A stretch of 56,162 bases of DNA, from the IMG/VR virus record IMGVR_UViG_3300045988_083024, one strand, 5' to 3'. The DNA is from a virus. Below the pieces are notes generated by a model. It saw nothing but the letters and a program-made list of their open reading frames with translations, was not told where the DNA came from and made no database searches. A program made the position numbers and the translations under genes. Of the stretch, positions 1 through 1,828 are shown in pieces. The first letter of the stretch is position 1, and every line of letters starts with the position of its first letter.

Positions 1-119
1 CACCAGATGTTCAACGGCAAGCAGTATTTCCAGAATCAGAATCTGAATATTGACCAGCAGATTGCCACGATCAACTATCTGGCAGATCAGCCGGAGCCGG
101 GTAGCTTGTATTCGCCCTC
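1..119. repeat. Terminal overlap, copy 1 (identical to 56044-56162)
   Basis: caccagatgttcaacggcaagcag...gtattcgccctc is found at both ends. An ORF reads in frame across the join. Confidence 0.9.
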
Positions 120-654
120 TCAGAACATGAACTGGAACATGGCAAACGGTCAGAAGTTGACCGCAAACCAGCAGTATATGCAGCAGCACATGATGGCGGC
201 GATGCACAATCTGGGCTATAACCTGAATCTGACCCGGTACGATCATCCCCAGTTCGTCAACGGGCTGTTGCAGCAGGCTGGCGTTAAGAACGCGGACTAT
301 ACCAAGCTCTCCCCGGCGGCACTGAAAAAAGCCCTGATGGGCATGTCCTACGGTGAGAACAAGTTCCTGTCCACGTCTTACAACGACTTCAAGAATGCCC
401 CGGCAAGTAGTCAGTCGGTGTTCAATACCCGCGCCGTTAAGATCAGCTATCGGGCTAATGCCAATGTTCAGGCTATGATGCCCGGCAATGGCCCCGGCGG
501 TCGGCTGGGTGAGGTCGTTCTTGCTCCCAGCGGTGGCAGCAAGAACATGAAGATCGTTGATGTTCGCTATACTGGCAACTCTGCACGTCAGCAGGGTTCC
601 CGTAATATGAACTTGCCCCAGATCGAGATTGTGGTCGAGGTCAGCAAGCAGTAA
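1..654 (+). CDS. C-terminal part of an R-S-E type ADP-ribosyltransferase-fold protein (ORF starts at 55849 and crosses the junction)
   Basis: Frame is continuous across the join (..TYHQ/MFNGKQ..). Motifs occur in the order expected for C3/VIP2-like ARTs: LTRYDH (Arg), LSTSY (S-T-S), RLGEVVLAP (catalytic Glu). Confidence 0.6.
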   Translation, partial: HQMFNGKQYFQNQNLNIDQQIATINYLADQPEPGSLYSPSQNMNWNMANGQKLTANQQYMQQHMMAAMHNLGYNLNLTRYDHPQFVNGLLQQAGVKNADYTKLSPAALKKALMGMSYGENKFLSTSYNDFKNAPASSQSVFNTRAVKISYRANANVQAMMPGNGPGGRLGEVVLAPSGGSKNMKIVDVRYTGNSARQQGSRNMNLPQIEIVVEVSKQ

Positions 655-671
655 ACAAAGGAGGTATTCTC

Positions 672-842
672 ATGGCAAAAGCAAAGGCAAATGGCCCTCA
701 TGGTGTGGATCGTTGGACTTCCAATGGCTACGGCATTTCTGTCGGCCCTCTCCCGGACAGCGTGAAAAAGGCTGTTGCGGAGATCAACGCGCAGCAGTCG
801 GGCGGCGCAAAGAAGTCCACCCCGGCAAAGAAGAAAAAGTAA
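672..842 (+). CDS. Small (56 aa) protein with a Lys-rich tail (MAKAKANGPHG...STPAKKKK)
   Basis: Strong RBS AAGGAGG 7 nt upstream of the ATG. Not in the ORF track (<60 aa). Same position and style as 1691-1828. Confidence 0.5.
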   Translation: MAKAKANGPHGVDRWTSNGYGISVGPLPDSVKKAVAEINAQQSGGAKKSTPAKKKK

Positions 843-857
843 TGGAGGTTTAAGGCT

Positions 858-1679
858 ATGGGCGGTAGAGGCAGCAAGTATTCCGCAAGCGCACAGAGTC
901 CGCAGCCCGCTACTGCTACACAGGCCGCGCCTCAGTCGGCAGCGGGTGGCGGTGCTGGCATGGGCAATGGACAGCTCATCCAGAATCAGGTTCCCGATGC
1001 GAACAACACCCCGGCTATTCCTGATGTCACTGGCACTCTGGCAAATATGACAGACGATCAGCTGGCAGCACTGATGAACCAGTCTAAAACCATTGATATG
1101 CCGAACCACTTGAACGATGCCGTGGATGCAACGCAGAAGTTTGTCTATGCGTCTGGTGCAAACGGTATGCCTACGGTTCTGGACGATACCCAGTTCAGCC
1201 AGTTTATGAAAGCCAATAACATCCCGCAGTCGGATGTGATGGCCCGTTCCGTTGGTAGTGCGGATTACACTATCAACAATGTCCATGTTCGCCTGTCCCC
1301 GGATCAGATCACCCAGATGATGAAGTACAGCCAGCTGAACTATGTCGGCGGTAAACACGGCGGCAATGTGTACGGCTCTGGCACATACTTTGACAAGAAC
1401 GGTGGTCGGAATACGGGATACGCGAATGGCGCAACGGCTATCGCGGTTCTCAATCCGAAAACTGCGCACGTCATCTCTAAGAACACGCTGGAAAATCAGA
1501 TTCCGGCATGGGCTACCAAGCATCCGAAGTTCGTAGCGGCGGTAGGTCGCCGGGTAACTAGCGACAATATCAGCATCTACGCGCTGGCGATGGGCTATAA
1601 CGTAATTCGGTCTGACTACAATGACTATCACAACGTCATTGACCGTTCTGCCCTTGTCTACCGCCAGAGCAACGCATAA
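858..1679 (+). CDS. PARP-like ART-fold protein (second MGGRGSK-leader protein)
   Basis: N-terminus MGGRGSK plus a low-complexity A/Q/G region, as in the 55849 ORF. Motifs VMARSVGS, NVYGSGTYFD (compare PARP G-x-G-x-YFA) and SDYNDYHNVI (compare PARP YNEYIVY). GGAGG RBS. Confidence 0.5.
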   Translation: MGGRGSKYSASAQSPQPATATQAAPQSAAGGGAGMGNGQLIQNQVPDANNTPAIPDVTGTLANMTDDQLAALMNQSKTIDMPNHLNDAVDATQKFVYASGANGMPTVLDDTQFSQFMKANNIPQSDVMARSVGSADYTINNVHVRLSPDQITQMMKYSQLNYVGGKHGGNVYGSGTYFDKNGGRNTGYANGATAIAVLNPKTAHVISKNTLENQIPAWATKHPKFVAAVGRRVTSDNISIYALAMGYNVIRSDYNDYHNVIDRSALVYRQSNA

Positions 1680-1690
1680 GGAGGCCGAAT

Positions 1691-1828
1691 ATGGCAAAAG
1701 AGTATAAAGAGGTCGCTCTTACCAAAGAGGGCGCACAGGCTCTCGTAAAGGCTATGAGCGAGGCTAACGCTAAGGTCGCAGGCGGCAAGGTTACCGCGAA
1801 AAAGGCCACGGCAAAGCCCAAGAAGTAA
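1691..1828 (+). CDS. Small (45 aa) protein with a Lys-rich tail (MAKEYKEV...KKATAKPKK)
   Basis: RBS AAGGAGG upstream. Paralogous in position to 672-842. Confidence 0.5.
   Translation: MAKEYKEVALTKEGAQALVKAMSEANAKVAGGKVTAKKATAKPKK

Follow-up and report, generated by a model that had tools for sequence, protein, structure and literature searches.

A DUF4417-linked array of leader-tagged, ADP-ribosyltransferase-like cassettes next to the terminase genes of a phage lineage found in Clostridia

The IMG/VR virus record IMGVR_UViG_3300045988_083024, a stretch of 56,162 nucleotides referred to as the window, carries upstream of the gene for the small terminase subunit (terS) two consecutive cassettes, each consisting of a large gene for a protein resembling ADP-ribosyltransferases (ARTs) and a small gene for a lysine-tailed partner. 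The first cassette comprises A1 (55849..56162, continued at the other end of the window in 1..654, + strand) and S1 (672..842, + strand), the second A2 (858..1679, + strand) and S2 (1691..1828, + strand), and the array directly follows a gene of the DUF4417 family (55151..55825, + strand). Both large proteins start with the same leader, MGGRGSK, encoded by 55849-55869 in A1 and by 858-878 in A2. An earlier note on this DNA had described the two cassettes at these positions, the identical leaders with Gly/Ala/Gln low-complexity linkers behind them, small open reading frames (ORFs) of 45–56 codons that start with MAK and end in lysine-rich tails, AAGGAGG ribosome-binding sites in front of both, and a terminator closing the pair just before terS, and all of these features are indeed present in the sequence. 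The linkage to DUF4417, the general use of the leader and a pre-sequence of the L27/Prp type in some relatives were not part of that note.

A1 lies across the ends of the window. Bases 1-119 are an exact copy of 56044-56162 and thus constitute a 119-bp terminal direct repeat, which identifies the window (GC content 53%) as a circularly closed contig of 56,043 bp and most likely as a complete phage genome. The A1 reading frame runs from 55849 to 56162 and resumes at position 120 to end at 654; the join is real, since contiguous copies with 98% identity are present in IMG/VR (L001 and L002). The 5′ part encodes the leader, the disordered Gly/Ala/Gln linker and the first portion of the helical segment with which the ART domain begins, and the 3′ part contributes the C3/VIP2-like domain with R144 (in LTRYDH), S189-T190-S191 (in LSTSYN) and E236 (in GGRLGEVVL). 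The product of 282 amino acids reads MGGRGSKSQMSGG...EVSKQ. Its AlphaFold model has an overall predicted local distance difference test (pLDDT) value of 83, with residues 1–42 below 50, and shows the split β-sheet core behind a helical region that is typical of the ART fold. R144, the S-T-S motif and E236 fall on three successive core strands (residues 140–146, 188–192 and 236–239, the last of which starts with the glutamate). An alignment of 48 relatives shows no variation at R144, S189 and E236, and conservation of at least 90% at T190 and S191.

The assignment of A1 to the C3/VIP2-like proteins, already suggested in the earlier note on the basis of the motifs LTRY, LSTSY and GEVVL, was borne out by the structural comparison. 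Foldseek retrieved 127 matches in the PDB with an expect value (E) of 1e-3 or better, and the top 50, at E 8e-9 to 5e-7 with template modelling (TM) scores to the target of 0.6–0.74, include C3bot, C3lim, C3stau, CDTa, VIP2, Plx2A and Certhrax; C3bot1/2, C3lim, CDTa and VIP2 lead the list with E of about 1e-8 (8e-9 to 2e-7) and TM scores of 0.64–0.74. Sequence comparison is far less revealing. A1 itself has no Pfam match at E up to 1 and no sequence match in the PDB, PF03496 weakly matches 20 of the 48 relatives (best E 7.7e-6), and a precomputed PF03496 annotation exists for two relatives in the database. A1 belongs to a large family: 422 clusters were matched at E of 1e-3 or better, none of the listed matches bearing a functional name, and the 90%-identity cluster of A1 alone comprises 797 sequences. 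By its modelled structure A1 is a protein of the C3/VIP2-type ART fold and belongs to the R-S-E clade, and we infer that it acts as a mono-ADP-ribosyltransferase of the C3/VIP2/Alt type. The Q/E-x-E signature of the ADP-ribosylating turn-turn (ARTT) loop is not found: A1 reads R-L-G-E, with L234 at position –2 relative to the catalytic glutamate, and this position is occupied by leucine or another hydrophobic residue across the family. As the –2 residue is neither glutamine nor glutamate, the acceptor residue of A1 is not predictable.

A2 is a more difficult case. The protein of 273 amino acids starts MGGRGSKYSAS, its leader is followed by a disordered linker up to about residue 45, and the remainder forms a domain with distant similarity to poly(ADP-ribose) polymerases (PARPs) and ART-PolyVal proteins (AlphaFold pLDDT 81; residues 1–39 below 50). 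In a Foldseek comparison with the PDB, eight of the nine best matches were tankyrase, all below the threshold of significance (E 0.28–1.3, TM 0.2–0.3). In BFVD, the matches comprise uncharacterized phage proteins (E 1e-10), a protein of Microbacterium phage Schubert annotated as "capsid maturation protease and MuF-like fusion protein" (E 1.5e-3), an ART-PolyVal-like protein (E 3.9e-3) and PARP domains of giant viruses (E 0.35–0.5). Like A1, the A2 family is populous: there are 463 cluster matches, the 90%-identity cluster of A2 comprises 400 sequences, and an exhaustive profile search yielded 338 members, 113 of which were aligned, down to 21% identity. A2 and 46 close relatives have no Pfam match. 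When the 113 members were compared with Pfam one by one, PARP (PF00644) was weakly matched by 41 (best E 1e-4) and ART-PolyVal (PF18760) by 15 (best E 2e-4), and no other family recurred in more than two; the bit scores of two members stayed below the Pfam cut-offs, with 19.4 versus 31.2 for ART-PolyVal and 12.8 versus 26.7 for PARP. Of the 60 PDB chains listed for the family profile, 59 are PARP catalytic chains (tankyrase 1/2, PARP12, PARP1 and PARP3; E 0.01–0.6). The alignment is anchored at GG.YG.G.YFA….S..Y, i.e., G-x-G-x-Y-F…Y, which corresponds to GAGIYFA..SNQY in tankyrase.

The landmark residues of A2 are R130, G173-x-G175-x-Y177-F178, Y188, Y247 and D262-R263; the strings YGSGTYF and YNDYHNV quoted in the earlier note lie within this domain. 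Y177 is invariant, G173, G175 and F178 are conserved in at least 92% of the members, Y188 is present in 108 of 113, and R130, Y247 and R263 exceed 90% (R263 in 111 of 113). Both tyrosines of the PARP motif, one on strand 2 and a second about 11 residues later, are in place. The position on strand 1 where PARPs carry their histidine is occupied by R130, and the column holds arginine in 103, histidine in 6 and asparagine in 2 of the 113 sequences. The six members that retain histidine here support the equivalence of this column to the PARP histidine. The canonical glutamate column, aligned by eye, coincides with N259 (N in 42, V in 25 and T in 24 of 113) and lacks the canonical residue, while D262 (D in 78, N in 25) follows three residues later and is succeeded by R263. 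The PARP-like character and the exchange of histidine for arginine thus stand as noted earlier, whereas the proposed replacement of glutamate by aspartate is uncertain. ART-PolyVal proteins have been published with an H-Y-D configuration (PMC5512222). Sequence profile and model together place A2 best among the PARP/ART-PolyVal (H-Y-E/D) branch, as a highly divergent representative for which every individual match is sub-threshold, and its putative active site is best read as an R-Y-(N/V/T)…D variant.

With the canonical histidine and glutamate both missing, A2 may be inactive. A degenerate ART fold could serve to bind NAD or ADP-ribose, or could fulfil a structural or adaptor role, leaving A1 as the only catalyst. 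Arginine at the histidine position in 103 of 113 members, a glutamate column filled with N, V or T, Foldseek matches to solved structures that are not significant and Pfam models that all remain below threshold would fit such a protein. On the other hand, the donor-site motif G-x-G-x-Y-F…Y varies little or not at all down to 21% identity, and R130, Y247 and R263 are conserved in more than 90% of the family, both of which point to an active site that has been preserved. Mono-ART activity persists in human PARPs without the catalytic glutamate. We consider a purely non-enzymatic A2 rather doubtful. Some longer A2 relatives of 402–523 amino acids (P0312, P0357, P0380, P0384 and P0374) have an N-terminal module (phrog_25904) with the motif W(I/R)T(V/I)..G..V.(I/L)D..G.I.GG.GGKF in place of the short leader. 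A1 and A2 were also compared as possible paralogues and this was not upheld: BLASTP gave E 0.1, and hhalign aligned only 35 columns around strand 1 with 87% probability, a match which at the level of sequence is compatible with a common superfamily at most.

What unites the two enzymes is their N-terminus. The leaders share their first 14 nucleotides (ATGGGCGGTAGAGG) and show synonymous differences in codons 5 and 7 (GGG/GGC and AAA/AAG), and the linkers that follow are about 35–45 residues long, rich in Gly, Ala, Gln and Pro, and modelled at pLDDT below 50. A1 and A2 are the only ORFs of the window that start with MGGRG. In relatives the leader is far more widespread. An IMG/VR search with a DNA pattern consisting of a ribosome-binding site and MGGRG[ST..] retrieved at least 119 stretches with at least 154 MGGRG-starting ORFs, and among the matches listed only 33 are A1 or A2. 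The other tagged ORFs of at least 100 amino acids fall into at least 34 clusters among the matches listed, some of them spurious ORFs, and judging from the sequences the tag heads at least 30 unrelated cargo bodies. These include canonical R-S-ExE ARTs, HExxH zincins and JAB-like and papain-like proteins, often two or three in tandem, and in several relatives the array contains third and fourth tagged ORFs. Such additional cassettes (L027:4967-5719, L041:4936-5634, L031:413-799, L050:8007-8672 and L038:5075-5485) encode, for example, an HExxH zincin-like protein followed by a small K-rich ORF, a weakly colicin-D-like protein followed by an acidic ORF of 86 amino acids, a JAB-like protein (H-x-H…S-x-x-D) followed by an acidic ORF of 60 amino acids, and a 136-residue "YGTEY..GNIKFV" protein.

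Moreover, leader classes match between A1 and A2 of one and the same genome: MGGRGS occurs with MGGRGS, MASNKSRGSGVT with MASNKTRSSGVT, MGKSRTSPL with MGKSRTSPL and MGSTGS with MGSTGS. The third positions of the glycine codons vary freely, which shows that selection acts on the leader peptide; conservation of the leader as an RNA or DNA element was rejected for the same reason. A resemblance of MGGRGSKS to the Walker A loop of TerL (residues 44–52, KGGRGSLKS) was noted and is probably a coincidence between glycine-rich motifs. Neither MGGRGS nor MGGRG or GGRGS was found in the literature in a phage context.

A minority of A1 and A2 relatives as well as other cargo proteins (L248, L249, L255, L262, L265, L268, L270, L044 and L067; P0332, P0346, P0359, P0375 and P0376) carry the sequence M..NLQ[LFY]F directly before GGRG. 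In the window, A1 and A2 lack such a pre-sequence and start directly with M-GGRGS. NLQFF followed by alanine is the documented cleavage site of the host protease Prp in ribosomal protein L27 of Firmicutes and in the capsid and scaffold proteins of phage 80alpha (PMC5744158). By analogy, Prp-type cleavage between NLQFF and GGRG in some lineages and removal of methionine in others would expose the same GGRG N-terminus. In a few relatives, the residues behind the pre-sequence (GGRGGSSTSTRN) resemble what we take to be the mature N-terminus of L27 (…KKGGGSTRNGR). Mimicry of the L27 N-terminus for ribosome targeting was considered and not adopted. The same applies to a role of the N-terminal glycine in N-myristoylation or as a sortase nucleophile, as other leader classes start with alanine or proline and supporting genes were not seen.

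Of the small proteins, S1 (56 amino acids) has the MAK start, a conserved DRWTSNGYG motif, a helix and the Lys-rich tail, while S2 (45 amino acids) combines the MAK start and the family pattern MA-YKE..L.KG.A.AL...ANxxV with such a tail. Neither has a match in Pfam, PHROGs or PADLOC; for all four proteins of the array, Pfam, PHROGs, NCBIfam, PADLOC and PDB sequence searches remained without a match. S1 and S2 are not homologues of each other, as a pairwise hint (E 0.006) dissolved in the profile comparison (hhalign probability 0.2%). Relatives are carried by 54 IMG/VR loci and 16 contigs of metagenome-assembled genomes (MAGs), the latter assigned to Oscillospiraceae, Lachnospiraceae, Christensenellales, Acutalibacteraceae, Faecalibacterium and Anaerovoracaceae, with two Bacteroidales that are probably mis-binned; no DNA or protein match to the window region, A1 or A2 exists among 50,697 GenBank phage records. 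In a simple scan, S1 follows A1 in 62 of 88 loci and S2 follows A2 in 57 of 78. When hidden Markov models for the four proteins were applied, the order A1-S1-A2-S2 was recovered in 57 fetched loci, A1-S1 without A2 in seven and A2-S2 without A1 in two (L100 and L120). In the loci with A1 only, the S1 homologue retains its core and the lysine tail is gone. Most simply, S1 and S2 would be cognate partners, one per enzyme, that act as inhibitors or escorts. This is suggested by the fact that each stays with its own enzyme, that cargo unlikely to be toxic often has no partner and that nuclease-like cargo has an acidic one. The role in immunity or as chaperones proposed for them in the earlier note is plausible given the cognate pairing seen at the sequence level.

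The second constant companion of the tagged genes is DUF4417. The gene upstream of A1 is a member of this family (Pfam PF14386, E 6e-52). When loci were anchored on the leader, in 64 of 96 arrays fewer than 200 nt separated the end of an upstream DUF4417 gene, recognized by plain phmmer, from the first tagged ORF. The association was also approached from the opposite side, with 80 IMG/VR loci (L192-L270 among them) chosen by similarity to DUF4417 alone and hence blind to the leader. Among the 65 distinct loci in this sample, the ORF right after DUF4417 starts with MGGRG in 46, and in about nine others it reads NLQ[FY]F-GGRG or its start was mis-called. An overlap of 10 nt between the tagged ORF and the stop codon of DUF4417 is frequent. 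The genes usually run from a sigma-like regulator through DUF4417 and the tagged cargo to terS, terL, portal and MuF. In another group of phages, DUF4417 and the tagged ORFs lie together between portal and MuF genes (L148:1761-7002(-), L151:790-5262(+) and L173:97-4016(+)). As both have relocated jointly, they move as a unit, which can lie inside the head module.

Cultured phages provide two further examples. Gene 00018 of Dorea phage DO134P1 starts with MGGRGSASG and lies just before terS, and Streptococcus phage A25 encodes DUF4417 (A25_22), a leaderless homologue of the tagged DO134P1 cargo (A25_23) and then terS. A comparison of the DUF4417 family profile with PDB sequences found no relative, no function assigned to DUF4417 was found in the literature, and its relatives exceed 4,300 clusters. 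Named members of the A1, A2 and DUF4417 families are exclusively called "hypothetical protein" or "DUF4417 domain-containing protein". Apparent DUF4417-A1 fusions (P0002, P0004 and P0005) were dismissed as Rosetta-stone evidence, since they are in-frame deletions without the leader. In these proteins the A1 linker or the N-terminal part of the A1 body is attached to the middle or the end of DUF4417, for instance at a common MSG, and they represent rare variants or artefacts of assembly instead of fused domains.

Within the window, the genes are arranged in the order sigma-like regulator, DUF4417, A1, S1, A2, S2, terminator and terS (1898-2368), followed by terL (2328-3617). The head genes (2328-10631) comprise terL, portal, a stand-alone MuF-like minor head protein (5154-6308), scaffold, major head protein and connector proteins. 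Further downstream, behind genes of the size of tail chaperones, an ORF of 1,796 codons (11770-17160) presumably encodes the tape-measure protein. A statement of the earlier note that the cassettes head the late operon is not shown by the sequence: the array follows the DUF4417 gene and is parted from terS by the terminator. The latter is an intrinsic-terminator-like hairpin with a 12-bp stem including seven G-C pairs, followed by TTTTTATTT (1845..1884, + strand); hairpin and T-run, taken as 1845-1874, end 24 nt before the terS start. Of 47 distinct relatives, 30 have a hairpin of –8 kcal/mol or stronger with a T-run no more than 90 nt behind S2, the stems being unrelated in sequence. At the other end of the unit, the protein of 139 amino acids encoded 5′ of the DUF4417 gene has weak sigma-70-like similarity. 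The gap of 187 nt in front of DUF4417 (54965-55150) contains an extended –10-like element (TGTTATAAT) with no good –35 element, as well as a small hairpin with a T-run at 55117-55140; an activator-dependent promoter of the unit from DUF4417 to S2 may lie in this gap. A near-consensus sigma-70-like sequence, TTGACG-17-TATAAT at 55822-55850 (11 of 12 matches), was rejected as an A1 promoter, since its –10 hexamer runs into the start codon of A1.

Taken together, the locus may be understood as the variable end of a DUF4417-linked array of leader-tagged effector cassettes that serve early host takeover, are probably loaded into the virion and have the S proteins as their partners; we give this reading as a whole about an even chance. 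Each enzyme is built from an N-terminal tag of 7–9 residues, a flexible linker of about 35–45 residues and a catalytic domain, which is the layout expected for a targeting peptide. Removal of methionine would leave a tag starting Gly-Gly-Arg-Gly-Ser, the same end that a Prp-type cut would create in some relatives, and the tag would direct A1, A2 and other tagged cargo to a common phage partner, for which DUF4417, the portal/MuF complex or the procapsid interior are candidates. A targeting role is the most economical interpretation of the tag, because a tag-linker-variable body layout is combined with reuse of the tag on many unrelated bodies, co-variation of leaders within genomes, a cargo repertoire like that of MuF-associated and polyvalent proteins, and a location of the arrays beside or inside the head genes. 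Loading into the virion followed by injection is the most likely destination. The tagged proteins would enter the head or attach to it and reach the next Clostridia host together with the DNA; there, A1 and A2 would use NAD+ to modify host macromolecules in the course of early takeover or counter-defence. In the producing cell, S1 and S2 would most likely hold their enzyme inactive or escort it, and their lysine tails might confer non-specific affinity for DNA or the inner capsid surface. Phage ARTs encoded near terminase and portal genes have been proposed to be packaged into heads, and ART, zincin, JAB and colicin-D-like RNase domains have been reported in MuF fusions and polyvalent proteins (PMC5512222; PMC9503650).

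Several points weigh against this reading. Beside the active-site deviations of A2 and the leucine in the ARTT loop of A1 discussed above, no prohead protease was found with PHROGs among the head genes 2328-10631. A targeting signal that is cleaved by a prohead protease as in T4 therefore does not apply, and such a mechanism is unlikely. A conserved terminator lies between the array and terS, and transcription of the array may be coupled to the upstream regulatory module and not to the head genes. In phage A25 a cargo homologue occupies the same position without a leader, so the leader is not needed for keeping that cargo. The adjacency of DUF4417 could partly reflect conserved gene order in one broad phage lineage, and lysine tails cannot draw proteins through the portal together with the DNA. 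What the sequences and models show are the folds and motifs, the modularity of the cassettes, the general use of the leader and its linkage to DUF4417 and the head genes, whereas enzyme activity, packaging and the roles of the small proteins and of DUF4417 are inferred.

The delivery reading can be carried one step further. DUF4417 and the GGRG(S) tag could constitute a hitherto undescribed cargo-selection system of siphophages of gut Firmicutes that loads interchangeable injected effectors, an idea that we put forward tentatively, as possible but well short of probable. A free Gly-Gly-Arg-Gly N-terminus, generated by methionine removal or by cleavage with host Prp between NLQFF and GGRG, would be recognized by DUF4417 or by a head component together with DUF4417, which might be a receptor, a processing enzyme or a ligase. 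Two kinds of ARTs, zincins, JAB-like, papain-like and colicin-D-like proteins and many unknowns would thus be loaded into the capsid and injected, with the lysine-tailed proteins silencing dangerous cargo until delivery. Such a system would correspond, on the phage side, to the cargo-loading peptides of encapsulins, or represent "split" MuF/polyvalent effectors.

Two further explanations concern the whole locus and dispense with packaging. According to the first, the cassettes are toxin-immunity or addiction modules that operate inside the lysogen or infected cell, with A1 and A2 as toxins, S1 and S2 as antidotes and the leader serving stability, turnover or other cellular targeting; abortive infection, superinfection exclusion, prophage stabilization or interbacterial competition would be possible uses. 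Gene pairing and co-inheritance are indeed as in type II toxin-antitoxin and toxin-immunity systems: each enzyme is followed by a small gene of its own that is preceded by a strong ribosome-binding site, other cargo bodies are followed by small acidic ORFs typical of immunity proteins for nucleases, a terminator isolates the unit, and the occurrence of the phage lineage in Clostridia MAG contigs is consistent with prophages. Yet no PADLOC defence family matches any component, many tagged cargo ORFs lack a partner ORF (e.g., in L079), and antitoxins of 45–56 amino acids of which one third is a poly-Lys tail would be unusual. The constant position beside or inside the head genes and a common leader on unrelated bodies would be left without explanation. 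We regard a purely intracellular toxin-immunity function as unlikely.

Equally improbable in our view is the second, namely that A1 and A2 are non-packaged enzymes made during infection, comparable to ModA and ModB of T4, which ADP-ribosylate host or phage targets in the producing cell while the leader and DUF4417 are co-regulated neighbours without a targeting role; in one version, the Lys-/Arg-rich S1 and S2 would be substrates or cofactors. The unit is transcriptionally closed before terS, it follows a sigma-like regulator gene and an extended –10-like element, and the invariant D-R-W motif of S1 could be an arginine acceptor or a pseudosubstrate, all of which would suit such enzymes, but retention of the same tag and a long disordered linker on unrelated bodies, creation of the same N-terminus via a Prp-type site in some lineages and joint relocation of DUF4417 and leader ORFs between portal and MuF would have no reason.

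Phage ARTs that are probably delivered with DNA are already known in kind. The A1 and A2 families, whose listed relatives have neither a functional name nor a significant model match, appear to be undescribed, as do the GGRG tag with its optional Prp-type pre-sequence and the near-obligate pairing of tag and DUF4417. What is new compared with the published idea of head-packaged ARTs is that the proteins are stand-alone and tagged, that they have DUF4417 as a companion gene and that small cognate partners belong to them. Gut metagenomes contain the A1, A2 and DUF4417 families in large numbers. Should the tag prove to be a loading signal, a simple sequence rule would suffice to find the injected effectors of phages of Lachnospiraceae, Oscillospiraceae, streptococci and relatives. 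DUF4417 gains a first functional lead, and the tag might become a tool for packaging foreign proteins in phage capsids. In addition, two new ART families with unusual active-site variants, L-x-E in A1 and R-Y-N/V/T in A2, come into view. Should the delivery idea fail, the locus would still show clearly a modular arrangement of enzyme-partner cassettes, located at a recombination hot spot beside terS.

Among known systems, the clostridial C3 exoenzymes and the VIP2/iota/CDTa proteins (PF03496) are the best structural matches of A1 and share with it the arginine on strand 1, S-T-S on strand 2 and the glutamate at the start of strand 5. A1 differs from them in its low identity of only 14–18%, the leucine at the –2 position of the ARTT loop and the absence of a signal peptide and of a binary-toxin partner. 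With Alt of phage T4, A1 has in common that it is an R-S-E-type ART thought to be delivered with phage DNA, packaging being a supposition in the case of A1. The T4 capsid-targeting sequence of Alt and the internal proteins is likewise a short N-terminal sequence common to unrelated proteins of one phage; the likeness is one of analogy only, as the GGRG leader is not homologous to it, is rich in Gly, Ser and Arg and is followed by a long disordered linker. T4 also differs in having a prohead protease, which was not found among the head genes of the window, and the phage described here is siphovirus-like with head genes of the SPP1 type and a Gram-positive host from the Clostridia. The NLQ[LFY]F pre-sequence of some relatives matches the published Phe-Ala cleavage context of the Prp substrates L27 and 80alpha proteins, whereas the proteins of the window lack it and the residue behind the cut would be glycine, not alanine. 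As regards MuF-fused polymorphic toxins and polyvalent proteins, the cargo repertoire is the same (ART-PolyVal, zincin metallopeptidases, JAB and BECR RNases), a fold like that of A2 is MuF-fused in an actinophage, and some cargo genes are followed by small putative immunity genes. In contrast to these, A1 and A2 are stand-alone, individually tagged and fused neither to MuF nor to each other, and A2 deviates from ART-PolyVal in carrying arginine at the histidine position. Encapsulin cargo-loading peptides, finally, are usually C-terminal, follow another consensus and load their cargo into a shell of the HK97 fold. By analogy only, they resemble the GGRG leader in that a conserved terminal peptide is attached via a flexible linker to unrelated enzymes.

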